NCBI GenBank assembly: GCA_900128565.1
Contig: LT635917.1
Span: forward strand, 1 to 58,906
Length of the DNA stretch: 58,906 bases
Origin: Stramenopiles sp. TOSAG23-6
Taxonomy: Eukaryota
Direction: 5' to 3'
The notes beneath the pieces are model-generated. The model worked only from the letters and a program-made list of their open reading frames with translations. It was not told where the DNA came from and ran no database searches. Position 1 is the first letter of the stretch, and the number at the start of each line of letters is the position of its first letter. Position numbers and translations under genes: made by a program. Of the stretch, positions 1 to 58,906 are shown piece by piece.

Positions 1-896
1 GGCTCAAAGAAAGGCATTAAAAAAGGCTGCAGATAAAGCAGCAGAGACAGATAATACAGTACGGGAGCTTCGCAAAGACGATACAATGAAACGCCTTACA
101 AAGTTAGTTGGTGGTATCACTGATCCGGAATTTTCTCAAGCATTAGAAGATACACTTTCCACTCTAGGAAAACCTGGAGGTTACAATGGAAATCCAGATG
201 ACGTATTTGGTGGACCAGGAATAGATCCAAGTGTGTCTGAACCTACAGTGGACGCCAATATAGCAAAAACATTACAAATGTTATCTGAAGCTGGTAAATC
301 TGGAATTGATGGAATGGAACCAGCAGCAGCTGAAGCTTTAGGTGAAGACATGATGAAGAATATTATGCAAGATTTTGAACGCATGGGAGAAAAAGAAGAT
401 TTTCAAAATGTTGTAGACGGAATGATGAAACAATTGTTGGCCAAGGAAATTATGTATGAACCAATTAAAGCCATCTGTGAGAAATACCCTGAATGGTTAG
501 CTGAAAATGAACCTTTTCTTGAGCGTGTTGAGTATGAGCGTACGTTTTCATCACGATTTTTTTTTTTCATAGAAAATTTTGTACCTAACAAAAAAATTCA
601 AAAAAAAAATATTTTTTCGCAATACATGGTTTGGACGTCAATATCAATTTATTCAAAGAATTTGCGCTTGTTACGAAACTCAGCCAGATAATTTTGAGCG
701 ACTTATGGAACTAATGCAGGATATGCAGGAATGTGGACAACCCCCGGCAGAAATTGTCAAAGAATTAGCTCCAGGATTACAGTTTGGGTCCGACGGTATG
801 CCAATAATGCCTAATATGGGTCCTGGGATGCCGTCTTTCCCTCCGATGGATATGCCGAATGTCCCTGGTATGAATCCACAGTGTACCATTTGCTAG
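1..896 (+). CDS. PEX19: Peroxin-19 (5'-partial); exons <1-539, 628-896
   Basis: Frame open from base 2. Pex19 C-terminal motifs LLAKEIMYEPIKAICEKYPEWL and LMQDMQECGQPPAEIV, ending in a CaaX box (CTIC). Removing 540-627 joins the two ORFs as YER-FGRQYQ. Confidence 0.92.
540..627 (+). other. Family intron, GT-AT, 88 nt
   Basis: GTACGTTTTC...AATTTTGTACCTAAC...AATATTTTTTCGCAATACAT; restores the PEX19 frame (C|GG = Arg). Confidence 0.88.
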
Positions 897-8675: not shown

Positions 8676-8717
8676 TCTAGCATTTTATAAATAATATATT
8701 AAACAATTAATAGAATT

Positions 8718-8820
8718 GTATGTTTTTTTTTCCAATTTTTGTCTAATTTTTTTTTTCATACGAAATTTCGTACCTAACAAAAACATTTAGAAAATTCAAT
8801 TTTTTTTTTTTGAAAAACAA
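8718..8820 (+). repeat. Non-coding copy of the intron family (probable 3'UTR intron; 3' end uncertain)
   Basis: GTATGTTTTT at 8718 and CATACGAAATTTCGTACCTAAC at about 8757-8778, starting 43 nt after the stop codon. Confidence 0.7.
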
Positions 8821-8896: not shown

Positions 8897-10526
8897 TTAT
8901 AGTGTTTGCTTCTCGGAATGTTGTTTCTGTTGCTCTTGAATTATCTTTTGTTGTTGTTGTTGTCTAATCATCAAATACTGTGAAAAAGTATGTCAAATTT
9001 GTTAGGTGTTAAGTACAGAATTTGATACAAAAAACATTTTTAAAAAAATTAATGATGAAAATGTACATGTTTCTCATCCGATACTTCAAAACGTTTTCAA
9101 ACAGTACAATTGATTTATGAAGTCTATCGCGCGAAATTTGATCTAAATTAGGAATATTTAGTTTTTTTATTAAATCTTGACGCAACATCTCGAGTTTCTC
9201 ATTACTCATATTAGCAGTGGCATTTAAAGTAGCTTGAGACAAATGTTTAGGATTACTGATTCGAGGATCGGGAAGTCTTTTACTTGCCATCTTCATTTGT
9301 TCTTTTTGATACTCTAAATGTCGCACAATATTCTGTGCATTCTGCAAGCGAGCTTCAGCAGCACGCACAGCAGAATTACACATTGCCATGTGTGCTTGAA
9401 GTTCTTGCTGGCGTTTCTTCCTGTGTAAATATGTATTGTGAAAAAAAATATTTTTAGAATGTTTTTTATTTTTTTTGTTAGGTACGAAATTAGGTACGAA
9501 ATTTTCATCGTAAAAAAAATACATTTGAAATGAATGATAAAAACGTACATACCACAGGGTCAAAGCAATTCTCTAAATTTGCTTTTCTATTATATAGCTG
9601 TTTCTGAACACGAGAAATTCGTTTAGTTTTCTTATTCACATCGTTGCTCTTCGGAATCACATTTTCTTGATTACTCAATCCCGTAGGATTGACACTGCTA
9701 TTATCTCTATGTAAGAATAATCGTAGACTTTCTCTATATTGAATTTTACTTGGAGCTGTAAGTGCAGGTATTTTGGAAAATATTTCAAAAAAAAATTGTT
9801 AGGTACAAATTTTCGTACGAAAAAAAATGGAATTTGAAAAAAACTAAAACATACAGTAAACTCCGAAGCTCCGCGAGAAAATCGGATAAGATTTCGATCC
9901 CGTTCTAAAAGACATGTCAAACGTTTTGCAGGGGGTATGTCAGTATCAGGAACTGTTCCATTGACTTTATCCCATGATCTAGAGAATCTAAACGCTTCGT
10001 CAGTATATCCAATTTCCCTAGGTCGTTTTTCTAATCGTCTACTTCCAGATGCACCTGCCTTTTTACCATCAACTTCAGTGGATTTACCCTTACTCTTACC
10101 GCGACTTTTACCTTTACTTTTGGTCTGGCGCTTTGTCTTTCCTCCTGTTTTTAATCCAGCTCCACCCTGCACACTTCCCCCTCTATCAAGTGATTGACTC
10201 ACTTGAGCTAATTGCTGCGCGCGAGCTAAAGCAGCTTTATCTAATTGTTCTCTTGCCCATTGCATTAATCTAGCCCCATATTCATACATTGTCCTTAACA
10301 TCGGATTAGTTCCATGTAAGCACGCTGCGTTGAAATCATTGTGAAAATCGTTCAACGTTCTGTATCCGCCGTGCTGATTAAGTCTCTGTCTCATTGTGGT
10401 GAGATTCGGGGCTCTTGAGCGTGTCTGTTGATGGACCCCCTTAATATGAAGATCCCACCGACTAAGACGATCAAGACATAGTTTTAATACAATATGAAGA
10501 GTACTGTAGTCGCTTTCAGTTGACAT
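8897..10526 (-). CDS. Uncharacterised protein with a degenerate bromodomain-like N-terminus; exons 10526-9855, 9765-9549, 9430-9067, 8972-8897
   Basis: PNLTTMRQRLNQHGGYRTLNDFHNDF resembles the bromodomain PMDL..I..Y....F..D segment. Continuous frame after removing three family introns; the last exon is less certain. Confidence 0.6.
8973..9066 (-). other. Family intron, GT-TT (94 nt) or GT-AG to 8978
   Basis: GTACATTTTCATC...CTGTACTTAACACCTAAC...TTTTTCACAGTATTT. The positional end gives a Gln-rich 25-codon tail; the AG gives an almost immediate stop. Confidence 0.65.
9431..9548 (-). other. Family intron, GT-AT, 118 nt, with duplicated branch motif
   Basis: GTACGTTTTT...AATTTCGTACCTAATTTCGTACCTAAC...CACAATACAT. 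The downstream CAG would create TGA. Confidence 0.82.
9766..9854 (-). other. Family intron, GT-CT, 89 nt
   Basis: GTATGTTTTA...AATTTGTACCTAAC...AATATTTTCCAAAATACCT. This end opens a 217-nt exon in phase with the next intron; the downstream CAG leads to a stop at 9675. Confidence 0.8.
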
Positions 10527-15900: not shown

Positions 15901-17565
15901 GGCTTAGTGCAGCGAATGAGAGAATGCTAAGAAAACGCGTTGCCAAACGTTGGAAAAATCAACATATGACGAAAATGAGGGAAATGTGGAAATCTAATAC
16001 AGAAAGCATTAAAAAAAAACAGTTGGAAGACGCTCGAAAACGCAAAGAAGCTGAACGACAAAGACGTATTGAAGTAGCAAATCGTGAGCACAATGAATGT
16101 TTACAAATGAGAATAGAAGAACATGCACAGTGTAATTGTGGTGATTTGTTCTGGGGCATCGAATTACTAAAGGAAATGATTAGAGATGAATTTGCTGCAG
16201 CACAATCTCATAGAAATAGAATTAATCAAAGAGTCAAAGAAAAACAACACGTTAAATGGCATCACGAATTGCGTCGCAGAAAGAAAGACAAGGCAGAGAA
16301 ATTGGCTGCTGTGTACGCATCGCGACATCGTAATTATATGAATAGATTCTGGAAATCTAAGAACTCGGCGGATATCATTGCTCATAATTGGACTCGCCAA
16401 AAATCAGATGAGAAGATAATAAAAAAACTAGTTTCTGGACCAGTAGGTTTCATTATTCCCATAGATGAACCTTCCCCATTAGATGCGATTCTACCTGATC
16501 TTAAAGGTCGCCCAATGACTGTAATTCCACAACGTGCACGTCGATTACAATCAGTTCACAATGAAAATGTTGATGTCTACTTACCCCCCTTACTTGCAAT
16601 TACACGTTCTTCTCCTAACCCGGCGGACCTGCCTCCAGACACGGTTAGAAGTATCGAAAAAGATGTGTATAGCCCTAGAGTGCGGAGTAGACGAGGTTAT
16701 ACCACGTACAGTAGAAACCCTAAATGGAGGGACGGATTTCGAAGCAGAGCTGAAACATCACGAAAGTCCAAAGATGTTAAGAGTAGGATGTTACACAAGA
16801 GAGCAGCAACATCACGTGCTAAACTCAACACAACCGCGACATTAAAGTCTCCACCGGCATCGCCCACAGCAATACCACAAAATATAGATCTTTCCGTAGA
16901 CATTCCAAAAGAGCTTAAAGCTTTTGTTGAACAAGTAAATATAGTTGTCAATGAAAAAGGAACTCTTTTTGCTGCGGAGATGAATTCTTTACGCCATGCA
17001 TTATCAGATGCTGATGAAGATCAAACACAAACTACAACAGAAGCACAAATTATTAATCAATTGCGAAAGCAAGGATTAGGTATACCACGTAAGTTTGTCA
17101 CTGCAATGTTTGTATCATTAGCAAAGCTAACACATAAAAGTTCAGTAGAAGAAACGCGCATTCAGTATAATAGCCTAATAGACTGTATGAGTAAATTTGT
17201 GGTGCCGATTTCACCAAAACAAAAGAGAAACCTATTTTTGAAAGGTTTCTCAAAAATGCAGTTCGCAGTTAAAAAGGGAGTACATGTACATTTTCAAAAT
17301 TGAATTTCGAATTTCTTTTTTTGTACCAAATTTTGTACCTAACAAAAAACAATTGAAATATGTTTTGACAATACATGTCCCACCAAATGATAAATTGAAT
17401 AAACGTATTTTCAAAATGAAGTATGCGCTTGCAATCAAAGCAGGTATGAAAATAGATCATTCTGATAGCGCTAGTGGTGATGGGGTAAGTAGTATAGAAT
17501 CTGATAGTGGATCATTTTTTAATACAGTGGATGACTTACAAGCTAAAAAAAATAAAATTAAATAA
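12972..17565 (+). CDS. Large WW / IQ / coiled-coil / two cNMP-binding-domain protein; exons 12972-17285, 17377-17565
   Basis: WW-like GWTE..YYIH..T and GWIQ..YFIH..SWDRP; IQ-like IQCMFRMH and CQARFRG; cNMP-like FFFIMKGEG..GNYFGE and FYIIESG..SQFFGQRA. Confidence 0.75.
17286..17376 (+). other. Family intron, GT-AT, 91 nt
   Basis: CAT|GTACATTTTC...TTTTGTACCTAAC...GACAATACAT|GTC; no AG near the 3' end; joins two ORFs in frame. Confidence 0.8.
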
Positions 17566-26516: not shown

Positions 26517-26626
26517 GTATATTTTTCGTTAATTTAATAAAAAGACATCTTGTTTCTTTTGTTTTTTTTTGGTACGAAATTTTGTACCTAACAAAAACTT
26601 TTACAACATATTTTCTTACTATACGT
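26517..26626 (+). repeat. Non-coding copy of the intron family
   Basis: GTATATTTTT...GGTACGAAATTTTGTACCTAAC...CATATTTTCTTACTATACGT between RPLP1 and YIP1. Confidence 0.65.
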
Positions 26627-26856
26627 ATATAAGTTATTTCTTGTTTATTGAATATTTATTGATAGTATGCTTGACACAATTTTAATTATTGGAGCTTGTA
26701 CTTTCCCATGTTTATTAATTCTGTTTTTATGATTTTTATGATTTGTTGCGTAGAAATGAATTGCACAGATGTCACAAGTTGACTAAGTTGAATTACAACA
26801 CTAACAACATAGCTCTGAGACAGCTAAGAGATACTGAGATTACTTCACGTTTGTGC

Positions 26857-27865: not shown

Positions 27866-30800
27866 TCAAATTAAGGTAGTTAAATGTGCAGTTTGCAAAG
27901 CAGACTTTATCCAATCTACGTCGACTTTTGTATTTTGGTTTACAGATATTCGATACGCATTTTCTCTATTTGTCTCCCATAAGGATTTCAGATTATGTTT
28001 TATCCAATTTGTGTACTCTTCCGTATCTGGGAGTATCTGCTTGCCGTCCTTTCGTAGTGGAAGTTTAAATTCAGAGAAATTTATATCTTCGTTTTCCCAA
28101 ATTTTGTGTTTCCTACCTTGTGCTTGACTAATTCTTGAATATTGTCTTGCAAGTGATTTCTCAAAGCCAAATGGAAGCAAATGCAGAACTAGAACGTCAT
28201 TTCTAGGAGGAAGAAATAAAGCATTGATAAGGCCGCCACCATGTAAAGCAATTAATACATCAGTGATATGCATCGCACGGACCTGCTCAAGAAATGTTAG
28301 TTTTTCCATTTGTAGACGTTGTACGCGAAATCCTTCTTCAATTGCCACTTTTTCAACTTCATCCCAATTTAAAACACGATGATTTTCTCGCTCTATAATT
28401 GTGAAAACAGGGGTTGAATTAAGTTTGATTTTCTGTTGTTGACTCCAATAACTTTGTAATTTTTTTCTGGTGTCTTTGCTATTTGAAATATAATCATTTT
28501 GTTTTTGTTTTGCAGACTTTTTTTTGTTCATGTTTTGTAAAATACCAAGGTTACTGTAGAAAAATTGAAGAAACTGATTGCTCCAATACTCTCGAGAGTG
28601 ATTATTTGCATCACTTGATACTTGTTGTTTATCTGTATTACTTGTTATGTTTCTATTCTCAAGAGTATGCATTTTTTCACCTTCTGTGCTACTTTTATCA
28701 TGACATGTGTCATTTGAAGTATCGGAATTACAGTCTATAGAGCTGTCATGAGGTATTATTATTTCATTAGAGAGCATACTTAACCGATCATTCAATCCGA
28801 CAATAGCATGTCTAAAACACATTGGCCATATTGATTCCGTTGAGGTAGCTTCTTGTAATTCAGCCCACGTGATAATTCGATGACGAGATATCATTTGAAA
28901 AAGGGAATAATATTGACCAAGTTGTTTTACTAAAGTGTCACCTCCATTTCGCATGTCATTGGAAATTAGAACCAACTGAATATCACGATCTGCAGCAAGA
29001 TATTCAGGTGCATGTTCCATCACAGTTGCCCAGAGAGCCATAAAACTATCATGAAACGTAGACCAATGTTGTGGGAAATTTGTCATGGAAAAGAAGAAAG
29101 TTGGCGCCATTACTATTTGCTTACACCGAAGTCTTGCTTCTTCCCATCTTTGGCCAACTGTACGTAAAGCAAGGCCACGAGGCTCGTTATTGTAATGCAT
29201 ACCCCTGAAGGAAGGTATCGAAAACAATCCATGAAATCGACGTGGTCGAATAGTGCGATCCCTAGTATCTCTCGGGTCATGAAGGATTTCTTGGCCATGA
29301 AATACCTTTGAAGCGCCTAAGCTTACGTTTCCTTCCATCGATGGAGTTAGTGGCATGGCTGATGGATCAGGCCCAAATTGTTTATCAAAGAATATAAATT
29401 CCCCATGTTTAATAGCGATTCTTTCGAAAGAGCATGACATTGTGATATTGCTGTCTGAACAACGCACAGATGACATTGACGGTGGTGCGCTGGAAATTGT
29501 ACTATTGTTCGTTTGGAATTTATCCCCAGTCCGGATTGAAGGTAACCTCTGAACATCTCCACTAGCACGTAAATAATGTTTACGTTTATTAAATACATGA
29601 TGGGAAAAGGGATTATCAATCGGTCGATGTAAATAATCAAATACAGCGAGAGTATCAATAGCTGGTGTATGCATGTTAATCGAAGGTTTTGCAATAATAC
29701 TATGGTGTAACTTTGACTTTCCAAGACCTTCAAATTTAACTAATTGGCTATGGTACAATTCTTTCATATTTGAACTTTTAGTATTTGTACCAATTTCGGA
29801 ATGGGTAAGAGAAAGCCCTGCTCCTCTATGCTTATTTATATTGTGAAAAATATTTAAAAAAAAAAAAACTTAGGATACAAAATTTTGTACGAAAAATAAC
29901 TAAATTTAAAATTCATGATGAAAACGTATTATGGCTATCAATTGAAGCACCTGCAGGAGGTACAAAATTTGGGTATACTAGATAAAGTCCATTTTGTACC
30001 ATAAACCGCAATGCTAATCTCTTCCAGGATGACCATGTATTCCACTTATTCGACGCTGCATGAGGTAATGTTAATTTTAGCATTGATAATATCTCATGCC
30101 CTGCCTGCTCTGATTTATTTATTACATTTTCAGGTCGCCTGAAGATCCACCCTCTATTCTTCTTTGTTGTGTCGACAAGTGATGGTAATGCAACACCTGG
30201 TTCGGATAAACTATTCAGTTCGCTAATCCACTTACGAAACCGAAGCCATTGTCTAGGAAATAATACAGCCCCCCAAGAAGATGGTACTTGAAGTAAAAAC
30301 GGAGTATCACTTGCAGGAAAATCAAATGGGCGCCATAAAATGTCATTCCAATGTGGCCTATATAGAGAAACTCCAAAAATATTTTCATGATTCCCATATG
30401 CCACTACAGAAGCCGTTGCCCATTCTAAGAAGTGGGGTGATACTTCAACATCATCCTCTAATAATATTGCATATTCGTGATATTCATCTTTATTTGTGTT
30501 TCGATTTCTTCCTTCTGCTGTAGGCCACCAAGATTCCAAAGTTGATAATGCAGAGCCTGCATTACTTTCTCTCCAGTTAACTGTAATTTTTCCATGCGAC
30601 CACCGCAAGTCTTTTATTAGCTGCTGTAATCTATTGCGATGCGATGAAGAGTCATAATCAACCGTTATCTTCACATCAACAGGCATACCCATCACATCAG
30701 CTGCTAGAAGAGAATTCCAAAGCCTCTGCAGCGATTCAACTCGACTACATGCGAATATTAATAAAACAAATCGAAATTTGTATTTTTCATTCATAAAACT

Positions 30801-32459
30801 TTGCTTTAATGTGTTTTTAGGCGAGATTTCTTTTCGCTGTTGAAAATTAGGAAATAGTTCTCGCAAATTTTGGGCATTTGGTGTGCTTTGGGTTCTTTTG
30901 GTTCTACCATTTATTTCTGATAAATTATTGTACGAAATCGCACTAGTTGTAAATGGCACTATAACACTTCGATTTTCACCAACTCCCAAGAAATTACCTG
31001 CGATAGAACGAAATTCCCACAAATTCAGCAAGCTATCATTAGGCTGAATCCAAACTTTTAATCTAAATGAGCTATTTGGTCTCAAATCGTAAAGTCGTAA
31101 TGGTTCATCAACAGTTTCTCTACATGTACGAATCCTCTCTATAAACATTTGTTGCTTTGGTATCCCGCTGTCACTATCATTTGGATTTGGTATCCCGCTG
31201 TCACTATCATTTGGATTAGTATATGAACCAGTGTTTCCATCACCTGTAACGAATTCATCAACAACAATACATATCACCCCTTCTTCACCAACACGAAATC
31301 TTGTTGGGCGTAAAACGATCCACGCATTATCTGGTCCAACTGTTGCAAATCGATTTGGGGTGAGAACAAATATAGCAGGTCCCGCGTTTCGATGTATTTT
31401 TATTGAGTCATCGTATACTTCTTTATTAAATTTTGAGTCATTGCCGAGAGAATAATTTGTGCTTTCAGTATCCAAAATATCACCCTTGCGAGAATAGTCA
31501 TTAGATAGTAGATGATTTGGTGGTAACAAATCTACCTCAAATATAATGGTTGTTATTTTACCTAATAATAAACCAGTTGAAGAAGAATGTAAACTTGCGT
31601 GTATAAAGTGCGGTCCATGAGATAGATTTACTATATAAATACCATCATTTAAGGCGCCCCGATTGACACAAGATAACCGATAATCCTCTGATTTATTGTT
31701 TGTGCCAATGTATCTATTATTAAGGTTGACAGTGTAATCCAGTGTAATACAAATATCAACATTTTTTGGTAGAGCAAACCCGTCGCGACCAGAGCCAAAA
31801 CCGGAGAAAAGAAAGAGAACTTTGACGGTACTACCATATACAACTTCCGATTCTACTGGTGTTAAGAATGTAATTGTAGGGTTATTCTGTCTATCTATAT
31901 CTCCAATGAGATGGTTACTGGAGTGTGGCCGTATGATTGCGGCTAAAGAAAGCGGAAATCGTAATTTTATTGCTGGAGTAGCATCAGGATCTAAAACTTC
32001 AAAAATGACTGTGCATTTACTACAGCCATACGTGGAATATGTAGGATAAATTATCCCAGATTTAGATGTTGGGTATTTCGGCAATGATTCAATAGAGATA
32101 GTATGAGTCCCTGAATCAATACGATCTACCAGGATTTGTAAACTAAAGTACTCATGTAATTCTGAAGACTGATTGGCAACTGGAAGACAACTCGTTGTCC
32201 TTCCTTGGTCAATATGTACACAAATTTTATCTACCTCTGGACACTGCCTCGCATTTCTCAATGGTGTTGCTACTTTATCATCATGCAGGAAACGCTGCAA
32301 ACTATTTGCGTATCTAAGTCTAACAATAACGGCAAAGGGATTTAATACAACCGAAAAAGGTCTCGGCCATTCGATGCTGAGACAATCACTTTGAAGTCCC
32401 AGTGTTTTTTTTTGTATAAAGCATAAGCAAAATACTAGATACAATCTTGTTGCATTCAT
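27866..32459 (-). CDS. Secreted multi-domain glycosyltransferase: GT-A-fold domain fused to a GT61-like domain; exons 32459-29930, 29835-27866
   Basis: Signal peptide; RVESLQRLWNSL..ESWWP..LLEDDVEVSP..QVPSSWGA..YPNF; C-terminal TFLEQVRAMHITDVLIALHGGGLINALFLPP typical of GT61/DUF563. The ORFs are joined by an AT-AA family intron. Confidence 0.7.
29836..29929 (-). other. Family intron, AT-AA, 94 nt
   Basis: A|ATACGTTTTCATCAT...TTCGTACAAAATTTTGTATCCTAAG...AATATTTTTCACAATATAA|AT gives SH-N-KHRGAG in frame. Confidence 0.75.
31156..31215 (-). repeat. Perfect 30-nt tandem duplication (NPNDSDSGIP x2)
   Basis: TTTGGTATCCCGCTGTCACTATCATTTGGA twice. Confidence 0.9.
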
Positions 32460-32820
32460 TCTGCTATAAATACTCTAGGTGTATCCGTCGCTCTTGGTCC
32501 TGTAGCAGTTATTGTCTGTCGTAATAGGACAAAAGATATCAATATATATTGTATCTTAGTGCGTACTAGATGTGTTACCTCTTCGTTCGTGTTGGCAGAA
32601 ATTTGAGATTTAGATTTGGTCGTACACAACACGAAATACCGGGTTCCAAGTTCCAACTTCGAAGTTCTTGGATCTGAAGCAGGTTTGTATTAAATTCGTC
32701 AGTTCCTCATGATCACTCTTCTGGCAGTCAGTTCAGAGTTCAGAGTTCAGAGCTTGACCAGTTGATCCGGAATACTACATCTCTGGAGGTGAGAAATCAT
32801 TGATTCTTCTTTCAAATACA

Positions 32821-34255: not shown

Positions 34256-34417
34256 TGTTTCAATTGAAGCATTTCATTTTTGGTATTTGAAAGATTTAGT
34301 GATAAAGTTACACACGATAATCAAATGTCATCCATACACAATCTTTGGTACCACAAAGTGTCGTGCTATATATTGATACGGAATATTAATAATTATGTCT
34401 TGGCTTCTAAATCTTCG

Positions 34418-34447
34418 TTTTTTTCATAGATAATTTCGTACCTAACA
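34418..34447 (+). repeat. Degenerate non-coding core of the intron family
   Basis: TTTTTTTCATAGATAATTTCGTACCTAAC between convergent genes; no clear donor or acceptor. Confidence 0.5.
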
Positions 34448-34464
34448 TCTACGAAGTGTAATAC

Positions 34465-37400
34465 TCATTCCCAATCACTTCCCTCACTCTCTCCATCGTC
34501 AGAAAAATCACTTTCTGCAACATCTGAATACTTTCCTTCATCCTCATCATCATCAGAATCACACAAATTTGTGTAACTGATAGGTTTACGATTTCGACCA
34601 CCTCGCCGCGATGATTTCTCAGTATCCATTGATCTTTCATCAATAATATCACCATCGTCATCATCGATGACGTCATCAACATTAAATTCTTCTTCACTAG
34701 AAGATGTATTTTGGAAGAATATTTCAATTTGTTTTTCGTTAGGTACAAAATTTTTATAAAAAAATAAATTCGAAATTGAAAAAAAAATAAAACATACATA
34801 ATATTTCAATAGATTTCTTTTTTGCTACTTTCTTTTTTGATTTCACTTTGACTCTTTTTGCCTTTGGAGTCTTTGCTGTTGGTGATTCAGTTGATACATT
34901 TGGTTTCTGGTACAATTTTACTCGTTCAATCAAATCGGATTTCTTACCTTTTGTTGATATGCCATACTCTGCACAATATGTTTTCAAGACTGCAACTTTC
35001 ATTTTTTTCAATTCACCATTAGTGAATATTTTTTTCTGTTTAAATCCATCGCTTTGCTGAGACTTTGACTGAGGAGTATGAATTGTGAAAAAATACTATG
35101 TAGAAAAAAATCGTTAGGTACGAAATTTCGTATGAAAAAAAATTAGGTAAAAAAATTATCATGAAAACGTACATCCGCCTTATCAGTTTTAAAATTACTG
35201 TGCGATCGCTTTGTTGGCTTCGAAATCATTGGTGAAAATGTGTTTTCAGACACTGCAATTTGAGCCATTCGCCTGTTCTATGAAAAATATTTTTTTTTTT
35301 TACCGAAAATAAAAAAAATTGTTAGATACGAAATTTTCATAGTATAATAAATCAAAATTCAATTTTGGAAAACATACATGGATAATGGAAGATCATTGAA
35401 GTCTGAATCATCGGAGGAGTCATCGGATATATTCACGGTTTTTTTCATGATTTTTTTTGATTTTTCAGGATTTGGAATTGAAAGCGATGAAATATTAGAT
35501 GTTGGAGATTTTTTCGTTATTTTTGGTTCTTTTTTTACTTTTGGTTCAAAAAATTGAGAAATTGGTTTTGTGTTGGCTTTTGCTTTTACATTCTCGTTAC
35601 TTGCTTCTTCTTTTACTTTCTCTTTTTTTACTTTTGGTTTCTTCTTCACGACTCTCTTGCGTCTTTTCTTTTTATTACCATTTTGAGCAGCTTCCTTCGC
35701 TTCTCTTTCTGCATCTGCATCGGCTTGCATAGCATCTTCAAAACGTATAATAGATGCTTCTAAAGCAATGAGATCGGCCTCCCATAATTCCTGAATAGAA
35801 GTTTTTTGAAGTAATCGCATTACAGCAGTTTTTTCATCAAGTTCCTTTTTCAACTTTTGGACTTTTTCGACAGTAAGTGACCGAATATTCATATTCAGCA
35901 TATAATCGTACCCACGCTCACGAGTTTGCTTTTCTTTTTCTTCATCATCTTTCTTCTTTTCCTTCTTTGAAGCTGGTTGAATAAGCACATAACCATTAAT
36001 CTTCATTTCAGCCACGAGTTCGGCCTCTTTCCTCCTGGAAATTACAAGTTTACCTTCAACGACTTCAGTCACAAAACGCATTTGGTTTGCAAGACGTGTG
36101 TGTTCAGCTTTCAAAGTCTTTAATAAATGGCGTTTGCGGTGTCCATACATACGTAAACGTGTTTTATAGAAGCGGTCAATAATACTTGAAATAGTTTTAA
36201 ATTTCGTGACTTTTTCAGACACAGTTTCACTTTCAATCTCTGGCATGGCCAAAGGTGCATTATCAACGATCATAGAATCCATCACAGGAACAATAGCCGG
36301 AGCTTCTTCATTTTCATTAAATTCGGTCGCTGGTGGAAGACCCGGTTGGACTAGAATCATATTCGAATTGGAAAGTTTTGAAGTCATCTTAAAATCACTT
36401 AAAAATGTTGCATTTTTCAATGGTTCTTCTCCGTAATCTACAGTAGGTGCTAGAGTTATAGTGAAACTGACGGTTGCATCTGTATGGTTTTCGTTATAGT
36501 CAACAACGAGTTGCTTTCTAGGCTTACTATCAGTCTTTTTCTTTCCCTTCGATTTCGATTTTGATTTCGATTGATTCTTTTCAGGTTCGGATAAAACTTC
36601 GAGTAATTCTTTGAATTTTTGAGTCCACATTCCGACAGGAAGTTCAGAAATATGAAGGATTCCTCCAGGACCTGGTTCGATCACTTCGACCAAGCCTTTA
36701 CACATAAACCCAAACGCATTCTTTTTCTGAAATACTTCTGTCGTGCCTTGAAAACCACGATACCAGGGAACAAGGTTTTTAGCTACAGTAATAGAATCAC
36801 CTCCTGATAGTAATTGACGAAGACAATTGATAATATCTTTGGGATTGTAATTAGGAATTTCTGTAGACCAACCCGTACCAATACCAGCACATCCATTAAC
36901 AAGCACAAGTGGAATAACTGGACAATAGTATGAAGGTTCAACACTTATACCGTCATCATCAAGGTAATCAAGTATAGCATCATCATCGGGATGAAAAATA
37001 TGTCTTGTAATTTCAGCTAATCGAGTAAAAATATAACGAGGTGACGCTGAATCTTTTCCACCTTGAAGACGTGTACCAAATTGACCACCAGGATATAAAA
37101 GGTTGAGATTATTAGAACCAACATAATTTTGTGCCATACCCACAATTGTACCCATTAACGACGCTTCACCATGATGATACGCAGCATGCTCAGAAACGTA
37201 TCCTGCAAGCTGTGCTACTTTCAGCTCTTTGGTTAATTTACGTTTAAAACAAGCAAAAAGAACTTTTCGCTGAGATGGTTTGAGTCCATCAATGAGGTTC
37301 GGGATGGCTCGTTTTACAGAAGCCTGAGAAAACAAAACAAATTCCTTATTGAAAAAATCTTTGTATGTCATTTCTTTCATGGAAAAATCTACGTACGTCC

Positions 37401-39788
37401 CAGCTTTCACTGCACCAATCCAATCCTTCCTTGCATGTATTTTGGAAAAATATTTCAAAAAAAAACAATTAAATTTGTTAGGTACAAAATTTCGTATGAA
37501 AATGTTTTTTCGAATTAAAAAAAAAATAAAACATACATCAGCATTATCTTTTGAAAAGGCAAGTTTAATCAGTTCAGCATCACCATCAATCCATTTGAAT
37601 GGGATGACATTAGTATCAAGATTAGCAAAATATTGCTTTGCTTCTTTAGAAGTTGAAGTACCAAGACCTTTATAATACTTGATATGCCAACCTTTCTGTT
37701 TTGGTAAAGTTTCATTGCCTTCCTCATCAATTCCAAGAATATTACGAGACTTCCAAGTCTCATACTCAGGAACTGTATGAAACAAAATTTGCTTCTTATT
37801 TCGTGTTACTTTTACAATCGGTGTTATAAATTCTTTGATAAAACCTGGAACTTGCATTAAAGAGGGATTAAACCAGTGTAAGAAATTCAAAAGTAGCCCT
37901 TTAATATGAGATCCATCGTAGTCTTGATCAGCCATAATTAAAATTGAGCCATACCGAAGTTTCTTAATATTTTCTGTGTCATACGAGACATCTCGTCGAA
38001 TTCCCATAATTTTAATAATGTTTTGGATTTCATCATTATTTGATACCTGAGAATGCTTTGCTTCGCGTACATTTAAAGGCTTCCCTATAATAAAAAAAAT
38101 GTGTACAGTTTTGAAATTTGTTAGGTACAAAATTACATACGAAAAAAAAATCAAATTGAAATGATAAAAACATACCTTTTAAAGGAAAAACACCATAAAA
38201 ATCTCTGCCTACAATGGAAAGACCAGAAACGGCAAGTGTTTTTGCAGAATCTCCCTCAGTCAGAATAAGCGTACATATGTAATTTTAGGAAAATATTTCA
38301 AAAATTGATTTTTTTTGTTAGGTACGAAATTTTGTATTAAAAAACATGGAAATGTATGATGATGAAAACGTACTGATAACTCTTTGAAGTACCAGCCTTA
38401 TTTGCATCATCTAATTTCGGAATCCCACGAATTTTTTTCAACTTTGTCGCTTGCTTACCAACGTTACGAGACCGAAAATTAGCAAATTGCATTGCCGCAT
38501 CCACGATTCCCATACTCTTTGACACAACTTTCTTCAATATTGCAGGAGACAAAATTGCAGAAGAACCGAAATCTTTATGCTGAGTAGTCAGAGCTTCTTT
38601 TGTCTGTGAATCAAATGATGGATTTTCGATAAGGCAATTGATAAAAACACAAATGAAGTTTTTTGTTGCTGCTTTACTTAACGCTTTGGCTTTCTTATTT
38701 TTTCGTGCACATTCTTTTTGAATAACAGAAACGAGTTGATTCACAATAAAATCAACATGAGTTCCACCTTTAGTAGTAGCAATACTGTTCACAAATGAAA
38801 CTTGTTCGAAACGTGTTCCATCACTAGGACAAATCGAAATTTCCCAACGATCATTCAAGCGTTCGTGAAGCATTTTCGTAGATCGGCCCTCTGCAGCCAA
38901 CGTCGAGAGACAGGATCGTGAACATAATTTCACATAATCTGGAAAGTTTTTGATGTGAAGTTTCTCGCCATTAAGATACACACGAACAGATTTATCAGTA
39001 ACACCGGCTAAATCATAAGTACGTTTTTTGAAAATATTACATATTTCTTCATTTAATTCAAACATTCCAAATTTTTCAAGGTCTGGTTTGAAAGTTATCT
39101 TTGTATACGATTGAGTTTTATGAGCATCTGTGATTACAGGCGACTCTGTCTTTGTCATATTGTTACGAAAAACTTGAACGTATTTCTTTTTCAATTTTGA
39201 GTCAACTGTTTCAACAATAAACTTTGTGGAGAAAATATTAGCAAGCTTAGCACCAAAGCCATTTCGACCGCCTGTGACTTTTTTCTTATCATCGTTGTAA
39301 TTTGAACCAGTAAGAAGATTTCCAAAAATTAATTGAGGTACATACATTTTCTCTTTCTTATGCATCTGTACAGGTATTCCCTTCCCATTATTGGCGACGG
39401 AAACAGTCCCAGACTCGCGGTTAATGCAAACTTTGATCCACGTCATCCCTTCTGGATCACGCTGTTTATTGTCAGCTGCATTTACGAGAATCTCATCAAA
39501 TATCTTAAAAAGAGCTGGAACATATGTACACGTCTTGCGAACTAGGCGACCTCCTTTATCTGCTAAATCTTCAAAATTATCTGCTGCAGGAACGTCCGCG
39601 TTTTCACTTGATGTTGGGAGAACAGCGGGGACATCCGTAAAAGTCCACGTATCATACGTAGTTGGTTGAACACTACCAACATAAGTATCTGGGCGTAATA
39701 GAACATGCTCTCGCTGATTTACTTTTTTGTAAATATTTTCTACCCTATTTGGAGTCAATGTCTGGCGTCTGTTGAAGTTTTCCGACAT
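34465..39788 (-). CDS. TOP2: DNA topoisomerase II with C-terminal SAP domain; exons 39788-38374, 38276-38176, 38084-37537, 37434-35378, 35272-35173, 35077-34798, 34703-34465
   Basis: EHVLLRPDTYVGS, DEILVNAADN, GGRNGFGAK, TEGDSAK, PLKGKPLNV, DQDYDGSHIKG, YYKGLGTS, DGLKPSQRK, YHHGE, SPRYI. Six family introns restore a continuous frame. Confidence 0.97.
34704..34797 (-). other. Family intron, GT-AT, 94 nt
   Basis: TAT|GTATGTTTT...TTTTGTACCTAAC...CCAAAATACAT|CT opens the acidic TOP2 tail; the nearby TAG gives another frame. Confidence 0.8.
35078..35172 (-). other. Family intron, GT-AT, 95 nt (in-frame CAG 9 nt downstream also possible)
   Basis: GAT|GTACGTTTTC...TTTCGTACCTAAC...CACAATTCAT|ACT. 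Confidence 0.75.
35273..35377 (-). other. Family intron, GT-AG, 105 nt
   Basis: AT|GTATGTTTTC...TTTCGTATCTAAC...AATATTTTTCATAGAACAG|G; the second AG is the in-frame one. Confidence 0.82.
37435..37536 (-). other. Family intron, GT-AT, 102 nt, in-frame and stop-free
   Basis: Removal converts FSKDNAD[34 aa]ARKDW into the conserved FSK..AD.RK.W helix. Confidence 0.9.
38085..38175 (-). other. Family intron, GT-AG, 91 nt
   Basis: AAAG|GTATGTTTTT...TTTTGTACCTAAC...ATTATAG|GG restores PLKGK. Confidence 0.92.
38277..38373 (-). other. Family intron, GT-AT, 97 nt
   Basis: CA|GTACGTTTTC...TTTCGTACCTAAC...AAAATTACAT|A restores SYQCTLILTEGD; contains an in-frame stop. Confidence 0.92.
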
Positions 39789-43340: not shown

Positions 43341-44559
43341 ATGAATAACTCTTTTCATGAGAAACCCTCTCTGTATACTGTAGCAACACATTCTGTGGAA
43401 AGTTTAGAAAATTTTTGTAGTACTTGGGATAGCTCTAGTGATTGCTTTCCTGATAAGCTTCTAGCTCCACTTCCTTTGACAACTCCAAATCCAACCAAAA
43501 TCCAAAAAAGAAAACAACACGATGACACATCTTCGTACACTTTTGAAGGGGAAAACATATTGAAGACGAAAAATGTATCACGTCGTCTAGAAAAATGTGC
43601 TTCAAAACTTAAAATACCTATAAAATTTTTNTCTCCGGCCGCTTGGCGTGGTGTTATGCGGAATGTACCAGCCTCGTACCGTGATGAATCACGTAAAGCT
43701 TTGGCAAAACAAACTTTTATGAACACAATTGTTGCGAAAGCATCTAGTAAGGAGCATGTTATTTTAATTTCCAGAAATAAGCCTCGAATGGTAGGTACTG
43801 GTCGCATTCTTGTCCTTGTTGGGCTAAAATACCGAGGAAACGTTGGAAGTATTGTCCGGTCTGCCGTGCAAGCAAACGCATTTGATGAAATATATTATGT
43901 GGAAAATAGATCGTCAGATGAGGAGTATCTCAATTTGACAACTCTTGTGAAGCGAAAAGATGGTAAAACTGGAGAGGATGAATCTGAACATGGTATTCCT
44001 GGTTATGAACTCAAAACAAAAAAACGAATGCGGGTGACTGATAAAGAAGTGGACTACTTTTCTATTTTTAATGCTCCACTGATTCCGTTTCGAAGATTTA
44101 AATCCGTGGGTGATTTTATGAGTGTTGCCTCTAATGAATTAGTGACGGTAAACAGTTCTTGTAATTCTGGTGTTTCTAATATTCCGAATGAAAACTTAGT
44201 TACAATGAAAACTACAAACGGGCGGGTAATGGTTGCATTAGAATGCTGTGACTCTGCTTTCGACATGTATGTTTTCAACGTTCAAAATTTCAAAAGCAAA
44301 TTGTACCAAATTTTGTACCTAATTTTTTTTTTCTTTAAATATTTTCTCAAAATACATTTACAGTGAAGATGCTAAGAATATTTTAGCCAAGGAAGATTTG
44401 TATCTTGTCATGGGTGCTGAAGATATCGGTGTGCCCATGGAAATAATGAATTCTTGTAGTGCTTTAGTAAAAATACCAGCATTGTCCGCTTCAGTCAATG
44501 TTTCGTGTGCTTTTAGTGCAGTACTGACTATTCTTAAAGACTTAGATTACAATAAATAA
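43341..44559 (+). CDS. SpoU/TrmH-family (SPOUT) RNA 2'-O-methyltransferase; exons 43341-44266, 44358-44559
   Basis: GNVGSIVRSA; second exon LVMGAEDIGV and VKIPALSASVNVSCA. Confidence 0.85.
44267..44357 (+). other. Family intron, GT-AT, 91 nt (in-frame CAG at 44363 also possible)
   Basis: CAT|GTATGTTTTC...TTTTGTACCTAAT...AATATTTTCTCAAAATACAT|T. Confidence 0.78.
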
Positions 44560-54157: not shown

Positions 54158-56973
54158 ATGCTGCCTGGCACCCCAAGGGAATTACGGATTGCCATTTCAA
54201 ATGCAAAAAATAAATTGAGTGAATTACAAACAAATTTGCCGGATAGATTAAAAGAGCTTAAACATTTAAAGAATGAGTTATCCAAGGAGCAACTACAAAC
54301 TGAAGACTTGTGTGAAGACTTCTTGGATAAAACACTTGAAGCAAAGTCAAAATCAGCAGAGAAGGCTAAAGTAAATCGCGTAACATGGGATTGTCCTCGT
54401 AGAAGAATGAAAAATCGTTGGATTGGCACAGATCCTCATCCAAAAAGTGTTGATGCAATTGTAAAGAAAAAAACTGAGGAGACTATAAAAATAATAGAAA
54501 GACTCCGCTCAGAGCTATCCTTTTCACTATCGCGTGAGAAGGGAGTCACTTTACGAACGATCAAAATGATGGAACAAATTCGTGCTAGTATTAATTTGCA
54601 TAATATTACTAGAAGAAGTACTTTATTGACTCAAAGATTAGCTGACCTTTCTCAGAAAAAGGAGAACGATGATAAAAATGTAGAATTATCTAAAGCCAGT
54701 TCTTCAGACTATCATATCGAGACGTTAAAAGATAGAAAATATGAAAACCATTGTGAAATATTATTAAGGTATACTGAAATGCTGGACGATCCTATTTTCA
54801 TTGTGTTGTCAAGATTTGACGAAATAAATGATGAATGGGAAGAAATAGGACGAAGTGAGGTGTCTTCACAAGTTGACGGCACATCTCCGAGCTTTCTAAG
54901 AACAACTGTAATACCGACTGATGGTCGATCATACCCAATTAATATTAGTTTATATAGCATACAAATGGATGATAGGATTGCCATTAAGTTCGTAGGTTCT
55001 ACAGAAACCTCTCTTGCTGAGCTTGTGGATGATAATGGTCGTATGTTTTCATCATAATTGTTTTTACCTAAATGTTTTTTTCGTACGAAATTTTATACCT
55101 AACGATTTTTTTTTCAAATATTTTTTAGCATCGCATATGAACTGCATTTGTTTATTTATAAAAGAATTGGTGTCGAAGATTCGAAATCTGGAATCCTTTC
55201 ATTGCGTCTTTTACCAAACATGTTTAAAAAAATAAAGCATTACGACTTTGTTGGAACTCATCGAGAATGTACGTTTTATTTTTTTTTTCAATTTCGATTT
55301 TTTTTTCGTACGAAATTTTGTACCTAACGATTTTTTTTGAAATATTTTCCCAAAATACATGTGCAACATTTTGTTTATCTATACCAGATGTTGAACAGAT
55401 TACCCCGGGACTTCGTTTAATAGAACAAACTCAAGAATCTCCATTTTCCATCATCGTACCATTCCAACTTCTCGCAATATTTATCGAAAGGATAAAGAAA
55501 ATGATTGGATTCTTGAAAAGTTCAAATTTTGAAAATGTAACAACGAAACAGAAAATTCAAATTTCTGTAACTTTGAAACATCAATCAAATTTATTACAAG
55601 AATATCAAAATTATCTAAATGAATTAAGCGAATATAAACAACCTTTTCTTAAAACTGTTGATTATATACAAAACAAAACAGCACTGCGATTTGTTCCAAC
55701 AAATTGTCATTTAAATTCTATGCTACTTATTAATGGTAGTAACACAGAAACTATTTGCACTGTCACAGCTGGATTTCCTGCTGCTCATTCAGTAGGATTT
55801 CGTACAGGAGGTCTCCTTTCCCTCTGGGAGAAATTTCATGAAGCATCAGAAAAGTATAAAGATAAAGATGTCTTCAGTATCGGAAAAGAAGGACCATCGT
55901 ATAAAATAGACAAAGAAGTCTCAATAGCTAATATACATGATCTTGCTACACAAAGCATCAAAATAGCACGGCGTAGGGATGTCGTGTTTTCTCAGGCAAT
56001 GTCCATATTGATTTCAAGTTTTCAAGCACAGCTACGAGTGATGTCAGAAAAATCAGATTCATCGTATGCACGGTGGTGGAAGCGGCTGGTAGATGTTGGG
56101 TTTCTCATCCATTTCAGTACTTTTATTGAACTTGATGAAGACAGCAGAGCTCAACTGGAAGACATTGTAGATATAGTAAACTGCCTTCAAAATGTTCACA
56201 TACTTGTAACACAAAAAGAAGCACCAATGAACAGTGGTATTTGTATTCAATGCAAAAAAAAAGATTACGTTATAGAATTTTGGTCACCGGAAATAGATTG
56301 GAGTCGAGTTCCACATAAATATTTAAAAAGTCACCGAATTTCTATATTTCCAGTTCTTACAGCTCTAAATGTACGTATTGATAGGCTTGGCAAACATGTT
56401 GAAGCTTCTATGCTCTTGCAGAAAATTAATGAGACTGCTTTAACAGCATTAAAAGACTATCAAGATCAGATTCTGGAAGCAAATATTGGTGTAGCGGTTG
56501 CTGCTATGTTGCAGCCTAACTCGCATGGTATTGTGGAAGATGAAAAGTCAAGGAATGAAAAGGTACAATTATTAATTACGGAAATGAAAAATATACCAAA
56601 GCAGCCAGTACATAATTCCAAACAGACGTTTCGAGATTCTAGTGAATTACACGACGATGTTGTCGACTCTCTAATATTATTTCAAAATATAGCAATTCAA
56701 AGTGATTCAGGTCATGTGATTCTATGTGTAGATGGCATTGACATTTCTCACATGGTATTAACATTAGAGAATGCAGTATTTTTAGTTGAAAAGTATGGAC
56801 TATCACCAGAAGAGTTTAGTAAAATAATGACAGCGATAAGAAGTCGAGGTGTATCTCCTACAATATGCGAAAAAAATAGAAATTTACCTTTTTACAGATT
56901 TAGTCAGGATACCTCAGAGCATTTACCTCCATTTTTACGACCACCGAGAGAATCAATAAAGCAAAGTTCATAA
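54158..56973 (+). CDS. Inositol polyphosphate 4-phosphatase-like protein (C2 + INPP4 domain) with degenerate catalytic motif; exons 54158-55040, 55137-55268, 55361-56973
   Basis: C2-like EIGRSEV..SPSF; INPP4-like FVPTNCHL, GFPAAHSVGFRTGGL, DVVFSQA, VTLE-like LTLE; CVDGIDI in place of CKSAKDR. Confidence 0.75.
55041..55136 (+). other. Family intron, GT-AT, 96 nt
   Basis: C|GTATGTTTTC...TTTTATACCTAAC...AATATTTTTTAGCATCGCAT|AT; the TAG at 55128 is out of frame. Confidence 0.8.
55269..55360 (+). other. Family intron, GT-AT, 92 nt
   Basis: AAT|GTACGTTTT...TTCGTACGAAATTTTGTACCTAAC...CCCAAAATACAT|GT. Confidence 0.85.
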
Positions 56974-57654: not shown

Positions 57655-58843
57655 TTAATATTTATTTTTGAGAATTAAAAGCCTTGTCCGTCTTTGGTCC
57701 ATTGGAATAACTTCCCGCAAAATTTCTTGCACTCGCACAATAATCGAATCTTTATCATACAGTACTGAAATTGAACCAGCTATACAGACTTCAAGATTAT
57801 TACAACTCTTATTGACACTTTTCTTCGAATCTTTTATCGGTTTTGTCGTTGATTTTGAACGTTTTTTTTCATTCTCTTTTTTTGCCTCTTTCATCTTTTC
57901 GTCGTGACGCATTATACAATCTTCTCGAAGTCTACGAAGAATGTCATTGGCATTTTCACCATTGGAAAGCATGCGGAGTCGTGGCATTCCACGTTGAAGC
58001 AATTTCTGGGCTGCTTTGGCACATGTGGGGCAAGTCACGTCCAGAACGATGGTGTCTATTGTGCCTCTATATAAGGATTCCTCTCCGTTTGCGTCTACAT
58101 GTTTGACTTCACAACGTTGTCCACTCTCAAAACCATCCTGTTTGAGTAAAGCTATTTTATACGTATCATCCAAGGCCAGTTTTAATGTATCGTCGTAATC
58201 TCCACGTACTTCACGACCTCTAAATATCTTTTGTATTATAATTGCTTTATCGTTTTCCATTTTGCGTTTTTCTTTACATTTTCTAAATTCTATACGTCCA
58301 CATTGACCACGGTACAATCTCTGGGTAATCATTGCTGATTTATACCGTCCTTCAGAACGGCGTTTTTTTTGTAATGCGTTTAATCGACCAATTTTACCTC
58401 GTTGTACGGATTGTATACGAACTGCTGATAGAGTGTGAAGTTCTGGTGTTGGTGGAGGAATTGCAATGCACTCGTCGCCAACTTTCTGTGCAAATCGCGT
58501 TGCATTGATTGCATCGAAGCATTCTTTAGCTAGAGCTTCCTTCCCAACACTTGCAAGTGACCACATTAGTGTACCTTCTGCACGTTTGACCAAACGCCAT
58601 GCCTCGTCGATTGATGAATGTAGTCTCATTTGATTTGGTTTGTGTTTTTGAAGATAAACAGGCATATCATTAAAGATACTTTCTACTTGACGAAGAATTC
58701 GTTTTGTAGGTGTTAAATCATAAAGATCGATATCTTTTCGTAAAATTGAAACACGAGTTGTGCATTTAACTATAGTATTACTACGCCGCAACAAGGAAGT
58801 CTGAAGCTTCATTTCAGTGCTTACATCTGCTTCATTGGTTTCG
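57655..58843 (-). CDS. IQ-motif protein, 3'-terminal exon (5'-partial)
   Basis: Three IQ-like motifs (IQSVQRG, TQRLYRG, IQKIFRG); frame open up to the family intron at the window edge. Confidence 0.7.
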
Positions 58844-58906
58844 ATGTATTCTGGAAAAATATTTCAAAAAAAATCTAAAAAAAATTGTTAGGTACAAAAT
58901 TTCGTA
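58844..58906 (-). other. Family intron, 3' part only (ends CCAGAATACAT)
   Basis: TACGAAATTTTGTACCTAAC...AAATATTTTTCCAGAATACAT; truncated by the window end. Confidence 0.75.

Follow-up and report, generated by a model that had tools for sequence, protein, structure and literature searches.

How is a transcript spliced across a 94-nt element that stands between two long open reading frames (ORFs) and whose own ends read AT and AA? This question is raised by a locus on the minus strand of a 58,906-nt stretch of DNA from Stramenopiles sp. TOSAG23-6 (contig LT635917.1), the whole of which is referred to as the window. The first-pass annotation had described the element as an AT-AA member of an intron family and had suggested that its first and last intron bases still interact.

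A glycosyltransferase gene split between two ORFs

The element, hereafter the target copy, and its surroundings comprise the following features:

29930..32474 (-), upstream ORF, 848 codons up to the element, with a glycosyltransferase-like domain ending in YPNF (ORF and homology)
29964..29975 (-), motif YPNF of the upstream ORF
29836..29929 (-), target family copy, 94 nt, ATACG...TATAA (15-mer and profile matches)
27866..29835 (-), downstream ORF, 656 codons from the element, with a Glyco_transf_61 domain further on (ORF and homology)
29783..29815 (-), partner motif LSLTHSEIGTN at the start of the downstream ORF

The upstream frame stops 16 nt inside the element and the downstream frame opens inside it. 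Removal of the 94 nt at the family place joins the 848 and 656 codons in frame, as the first-pass annotation had stated. The motifs YPNF and LSLTHSEIGTN are collinear with those of the relative P0039 (residue 869, and residue 875 onward, respectively). Since one half of this conserved pair is encoded in each ORF, one gene is indicated, from which something is removed in between. Judged by homology, the target copy is shown to interrupt a predicted single, multi-domain glycosyltransferase gene, with YPNF upstream and LSLTHSEIGTN downstream, in agreement with the earlier placement of a family intron inside one gene.

The C-terminal 329 residues encoded by the upstream ORF, searched against the full library, retrieved 1795 relatives at E<=0.001. 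The spacing between the two motifs was counted on the best 149 of these 1795, with P0001 excluded and 80 sequences left out that gave no match to the regular expression. The other 69 of the 149 carry YPN-x followed by S-[FL]-S-T-N-H-x-E-x-G. YPNx and E are separated by 11 residues in 66 of these 69, by 10 in two and by 25 in one.

The only database protein for the locus, P0001 (838 aa; 29913-32459 (-)), reads into the element and stops. It would suit a reading in which the copy stays in the mRNA, the upstream ORF terminates after five codons of element sequence, and the downstream ORF is expressed alone or is decaying. A fused protein across the junction was found neither among database proteins of 110-350 residues, queried with 200 residues from each side, nor among longer ones, queried with the downstream ORF, which is consistent with the same reading. 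Against it, P0001 was called automatically as an ORF on a contig of 3410 nt with no stated molecule type, the downstream frame of 656 codons is intact in DNA of ~36% G+C, and the conserved motif pair would be left divided. Non-removal is the least probable of the readings that we weigh here.

An introner-like intron family

The 15-mer that opens the family elements has 14 matches in the window at no more than three mismatches, compared to 3.16 expected, and none of 100 shuffles reached 14. A profile built from 10 family copies detected 22 places in the window at E<1e-5, in addition to a weaker one at 35380. The elements are ~90-118 nt long and share one layout. In the 5' part, an exon usually ending in AT is followed by GTAYRTTTT(CATCAT) and a T-rich stretch, and in the 3' part a GTAC-containing palindrome runs into GTACCTAAC, an A/T run and then AAATATTTTTYCAMAATACAT. 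The 3' block is usually CACAATACAT or CAAAATACAT.

Nineteen full copies have a family-aligned end, namely the target copy and 18 copies that start with G. Among these 18, the first base is G without exception, the last base is T in 17 and G in one, and intron position -3 is C in 17. The last two bases of the exon equal the last two of the intron in 12 of the 18 (11 AT and one CT), and the inverted repeat at the family termini is short, GTA/TAC only. The genes hit are unrelated, including PEX19, topoisomerase II, the glycosyltransferase and other ORFs. The profile search and inspection of the sequence also revealed incomplete or altered copies:

8717-8785 (+), partial family copy outside long ORFs
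26554-26627 (+), partial family copy outside long ORFs
58842-58906 (-), family copy cut by the window end
38085-38175 (-), family 5' half with an unrelated 3' half ending in TATAG

The two partial copies outside long ORFs imply that the element is not confined to coding sequence. The copy at 38085-38175 (-) seems to have turned from a family member into an ordinary GT..AG intron. The elements form an introner-like, transposon-like intron family that riddles the genes of this protist.

The family is spliced without a 3' AG

In all 16 G-start copies tested, and also in the copy at 55041, removal up to the family-aligned 3' end keeps the frame between long flanking ORFs; at the copy at 9066 the frame is ambiguous, with only 25 codons beyond. 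The following copies define the splice sites:

34704..34797 (-), family copy with a GT..AT joint 34703/34798 in RNA contigs from two samples of one study
35078..35172 (-), family copy with a GT..AT joint 35077/35173 in one RNA contig
35273..35377 (-), family-like copy ending in CAG at the family-aligned place, with an RNA joint 35271/35377
38277..38373 (-), family copy in topoisomerase II, placed by collinearity with the yeast and human enzymes
37435..37536 (-), family copy in topoisomerase II, after whose removal the alignment to yeast Top2 continues without a break across residues 648 and 649
540..627 (+), family copy that interrupts a PEX19 homolog, with the exon flank GC in place of the usual AT

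The joints 34703/34798 and 35077/35173 carry a 2-nt ambiguity, in that exon and intron both end in AT. The joint of the 35377 copy places the 5' cut at |GT with an uncertainty of 1 nt, so the family register is GT..AT and not AT..AC. An AT..AC register is also ruled out by the flanks GC, CA and TC, which would give variable first dinucleotides. At the 38373 copy, the upstream exon ends at yeast Top2 residue 441 and the next starts at residue 443, with exactly one split codon between them. No AG is usable there, and the nearest downstream AG would delete invariant residues. At the 35172 copy two AGs go unused, one lying 18 nt downstream of the branch A and the other in frame, 9 nt past the family end. 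AGs between the branch box and the family end are skipped at the 35172 and 35377 copies, as seen in RNA, and at the 4659 and 55041 copies, as judged by frame.

The distance from the CTAAC box to the family end ranges from 29 to 47 nt, which argues that the cut is set by the 3' block and not by distance from the box. Overall, the family is removed at |GTAYRT...(C)AT|, and its 3' cut is set by the place in the conserved 3' block and not by an AG. This is the firm result of the analysis, backed by RNA contigs as well as by exact protein collinearity: although the donor is strong and conventional and a branch box and T-run are present, the family is cut at a non-AG 3' end, mostly AT, and AGs are skipped. 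It offers a well-defined natural setting in which to study 3' splice-site choice without AG.

Non-AG introns of this kind are invisible to gene callers, so the database proteins of this organism are probably truncated. Such introns would account for truncated gene calls in this protist, and the public model of the glycosyltransferase gene stops inside the element.

The target copy deviates at its junctions

Four segments of the target copy were compared with the family:

29915..29929 (-), 5' block ATACGTTTTCATCAT, identical to the family 15-mer at 14 of 15 bases, the sole mismatch being at +1
29836..29845 (-), 3' end CACAATATAA, aligned gap-free to the family 3' block
29836..29855 (-), 3' block AAATATTTTTCACAATATAA, with T at -3 and A at -1 versus C (17/18) and T (17/18) in the family
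29869..29877 (-), branch-box region TATCCTAAG, with one T inserted and the last C changed to G relative to the family GTACCTAAC

The 5' comparison bears out the earlier description of the donor as the family 15-mer with G1 changed to A, and the AA end does lie at the family place, as had been proposed. Among the 19 full copies, the target copy is the only one with A at +1 and also the only one with A at -1, so its uniqueness at either end was rightly noted. The claim that both terminal Gs are absent stands in one half. A G has been lost at the 5' end, where all 18 other copies have it, but the family has no terminal 3' G to lose. As the family ends in T in 17 of 18 copies, the 3' change at the target copy is from T to A.

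In addition, the last exon base before the target copy is A, unlike in the family, whereas the 3' block, the block spacing and the T-run are kept. The terminal blocks contain 23 conserved columns, 7 of them no more than three bases from a junction. The target copy deviates in 4 of these 7 and in 0 of the remaining 16 (Fisher p=0.004). This clustering is compatible with compensation between the ends, with one imprecise insertion event, or with inner sites that were disabled or retuned.

Read error is ruled out as the source of the A at +1, because P0001, from an independent public contig of 3410 nt, has the same read-through residues (..DSHNTFSS), in support of the first-pass annotation. P0001 differs from the window ORF by three substitutions and a 10-residue indel. 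A 10-residue unit at ~31150-31210 (-) occurs twice in the window ORF and once in P0001, a repeat-number polymorphism.

A 4-nt direct repeat, AATA, is present at both target junctions and allows five registers (shift -1 to +3), running from 29837..29930 through 29833..29926, that all give the same mRNA. The first and last bases over these shifts are A/A, A/A, T/A, A/T and C/A, so the label AT..AA represents a choice of register. The 21-nt and 18-nt flanks of the target copy have no second occurrence in the window, and a longer variant of the element at this place is ruled out by the uniqueness of both flanks there.

The 15-mer CCAAATTTTGTACCT occurs three times in the window, at 29958-29972 (-), 17326-17340 (+) and 44306-44320 (+). 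Two occurrences are inside family copies, and the third is in the P-N-F-V-P-coding exon just upstream of the target copy, where it includes the candidate donor GTACCT described below. The sharing may be a coincidence or may reflect homology-guided insertion.

Outer GT..AG sites versus the family place

The products of the candidate removals were scored against a profile of 69 homolog segments:

no removal, unspliced: 75.9 bits
AT..AA at the family place, 94 nt removed, 24 residues from YPNF to E: 76.4 bits
mixed-site models, 106-115 nt removed, spacing other than 11: 80.9-84.6 bits
29818..29950 (-), GT..AG, 133 nt removed, cag|GTGCTT...GAGCAG|g, 11 residues: 92.3 bits
29831..29963 (-), GT..AG, 133 nt removed, donor GTACCT directly after the F codon, 11 residues: 95.0 bits

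The acceptor of the 29831..29963 (-) pair is the first AG past the CTAAG box. We propose, at a probability of roughly 45%, that the target mRNA is made mainly with the outer GT..AG pair, 29963..29831 or 29950..29818. The invariant junction bases of the family are lost in the target copy, where exon -1 is changed along with intron positions +1 (G>A), -3 (C>T) and -1 (T>A). These changes may disable or shift its own splice sites. An ordinary GT..AG pair just outside the element would then be used, by which 133 nt would be removed and the conserved motif spacing restored. The label AT..AA would then denote a single choice among five equivalent registers, and the splice that it describes would probably not be the predominant one.

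The outer sites are favored by the strong conservation of the motif spacing and by the exactness of the family-place removals in topoisomerase II. Removal as AT..AA leaves 13 residues that are absent from 66 of the 69 motif-bearing homologs. As family-place removal adds no residues at the two topoisomerase II copies, the 13 extra at the target copy make it an outlier. When surplus residues remain in frame right beside a non-canonical intron, this usually signals that its boundaries have been misplaced. The earlier assignment of AT-AA as the ends of the intron is thus disfavored, in that it leaves a 13-residue insertion and the surrounding GT-AG sites restore the spacing of 11.

Several observations speak against the outer pair. 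Measured by local standards, both outer donors are weak: scores range from 11.3 to 17.4 bits for the 19 known donors, compared to 0.0 bits for GTACCT (the 90th percentile of all GT sites) and -9.5 bits for GTGCTT (the 47th percentile), and the inner ATACGT donor scores 4.4 bits despite its A. A GT..AG pair removing exactly the 39 extra nt arose by chance in 2261 of 20000 flank shuffles (11%). The 39 flanking nt keep the frame open and contain no stop, a property required by the inner model but not by the outer one. None of the other copies lies nested within flanking intronic sequence. Moreover, the concentration of changes at the junctions also fits compensation.

Splicing of the target copy at the family place (29929..29836 or an equivalent register), with the terminal A, the T at -3 or both compensating for the loss of G at +1 and with a 13-residue loop insertion in the protein, is rather unlikely in our assessment. 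The removal is in frame with no stop in the 13 flanking codons. Apart from the junction changes, the consensus is kept in the 15-nt 5' block, the T-run and the 3' block, none of the 16 non-junction columns differing. The positional 3' cut of the family accepts either T or G as its final base, a second assembly shares the A at +1, and the target copy is unique at both ends, a coincidence expected by chance in about 1 of 19 copies. AT-AA and GT-AT are also workable U12-type termini, with 8 and 7 natural cases, respectively, in Table 2 of PMC1557818. Set against these points are that the event is single, that its boundaries are ambiguous over the five registers of the 4-nt repeat, that the branch box is altered too, and that 24 residues replace the 11 of 66/69 homologs with a profile gain of only 0.5 bits over the unspliced form. 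The joint 29835/29930 is absent among the joints listed from four metatranscriptome runs (a listing beyond which lie 29 further joints and 2209 pieces), a result that weighs neither way. RNA depth in the bin 29001-29667 is zero in all four runs, and in 29668-30334 it is ~11, which includes cross-matches of repeated element pieces.

The isosteric G-G and A-C terminal pairs of introns, by which a change at +1 is rescuable at the last base (Parker and Siliciano 1993, via PMC13326754), concern the step from G..G to A..C as presented there, whereas the target family starts from G..T. The first-pass annotation reasoned from the G..G pair of GT-AG introns, and its argument for a first/last-base interaction is not supported for this starting pair. 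That a terminal A can rescue such a change in U2-type introns is a statement of the first-pass annotation. The covariation that it saw between first and last bases comes from one copy inside a direct repeat, and the C-to-T change at -3 fits a pair between +1 and -3 equally well. That a GT..AT family cut by position regardless of AGs includes an AT..AA copy still spliced there through compensating junction changes (A+1/A-1 and/or A:U for G:C between +1 and -3) is a combination we consider unlikely. If true, the target copy would be a natural double mutant displaying end-to-end nucleotide coupling in a non-AG intron class.

A further reading is the use of one outer and one inner site (GT..AA, 115 nt; AT..AG, 106-112 nt), or of several isoforms. 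Every combination is in frame and stop-free, and the profile scores are intermediate; none restores the 11-residue spacing and no such joint is listed in RNA. Mixed use is improbable. Returning to the outer GT..AG pair, a cDNA with the 133-nt removal would reveal a crippled introner rescued by nearby ordinary sites, and a cDNA with the AT..AA junction would be in vivo evidence for coupling of intron ends. The target copy is a natural test case for intron-end coupling versus rescue by outer sites.

Comparison with known intron types

U12-type introns have a consensus donor RTATCCTT and a TCCTTAAC box ~10-20 nt from the 3' end. Unlike these, the family has the donor GTAYRTTTT and no TCCTTAAC box near the 3' end, its CTAAC box being 29-47 nt away. 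It also differs from U2-type GT-AG introns, with AT..AA at the target copy and GT..AT in 17 of 18 copies, although the 133-nt alternatives do fit GT-AG. The family (GT-AT) and the target copy (AT-AA) resemble the U12-type introns with rare but workable termini tabulated in PMC1557818 (Table 2), whose 3' site is likewise not defined by AG.

Introners and transposon-derived introns have been described in Micromonas, Aureococcus and many aquatic eukaryotes (PMC11282704, PMC12130899, 10.1101/2022.06.06.494994). Similar to the introners of these reports, the family comprises many near-identical short introns in unrelated genes, with a boundary direct repeat in 12 of 18 copies, a short candidate inverted repeat GTA...TAC and partial copies outside ORFs. 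Introners as described there have GT/GC-AG ends, the AG often coming from the duplicated target, whereas the present family mostly ends in AT and skips AGs. A full-text literature search gave no match for 'GT-AT' together with 'introner'. The family may be a transposon-derived intron of a known sort with a uniform non-AG 3' end as a new variation, and the supplementary tables of introner surveys may already list it.

Non-canonical transposon-derived introns are reported from Fritillaria borealis, Amoebophrya and Polarella (PMC11282704, PMC7789003, PMC13326754). Like the family, those introns have non-GT/AG ends with boundary direct and inverted repeats and are tolerated by the splicing machinery. 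According to the same accounts they have many end pairs and a weak 5' consensus, in contrast to the strong GTAYRT donor, CTAAC box and T-run of the family and its uniform deviation at the 3' terminal base only. The nonconventional introns of euglenids (PMC11282704, PMC4770533) share non-canonical borders and boundary repeats with the family, and pairing between the intron ends is described for them. As portrayed in these sources, they are devoid of a polypyrimidine tract and a conventional donor, both of which the window family has.

Host and transcript pieces of the family

The window has a G+C content of ~36%, and its products, read with the standard code, are ordinary eukaryotic ones: a protein kinase, a myosin head, CLU, an RRM protein, ankyrin repeats, PEX19 and topoisomerase II. 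Seawater metatranscriptomes hold pieces of the window (13 runs listed, 12 on record as RNA, from five studies, with shares <=0.18). The eukaryotic gene content and these matches together indicate a cellular marine protist. A mirusvirus origin is ruled out by the myosin, kinase, CLU, PEX19 and topoisomerase II encoded in the window. No Rfam family was found within the window.

A scan of metagenome contigs for family copies with a degenerate pattern gave two loci, neither of which matches the family profile, and both were rejected as they read as a coding gene of another organism. The same kind of scan gave no locus in viral contigs and two in prokaryote genomes (an archaeal and a bacterial MAG), which were taken as chance from their titles.

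In polyA metatranscriptomes, family pieces from 34337-35670 and 37005-38338 reach summed contig depths of hundreds to thousands, and the contigs contain many chimeric joints between family copies. The high depth and chimeric joints suggest a very high copy number of the family or frequent retention. In run X3, contigs leave the window sequence at 34414 and 34445, with loose ends of 69 and 255 letters, respectively, and these departures could be a polymorphic intron or an alternative form.
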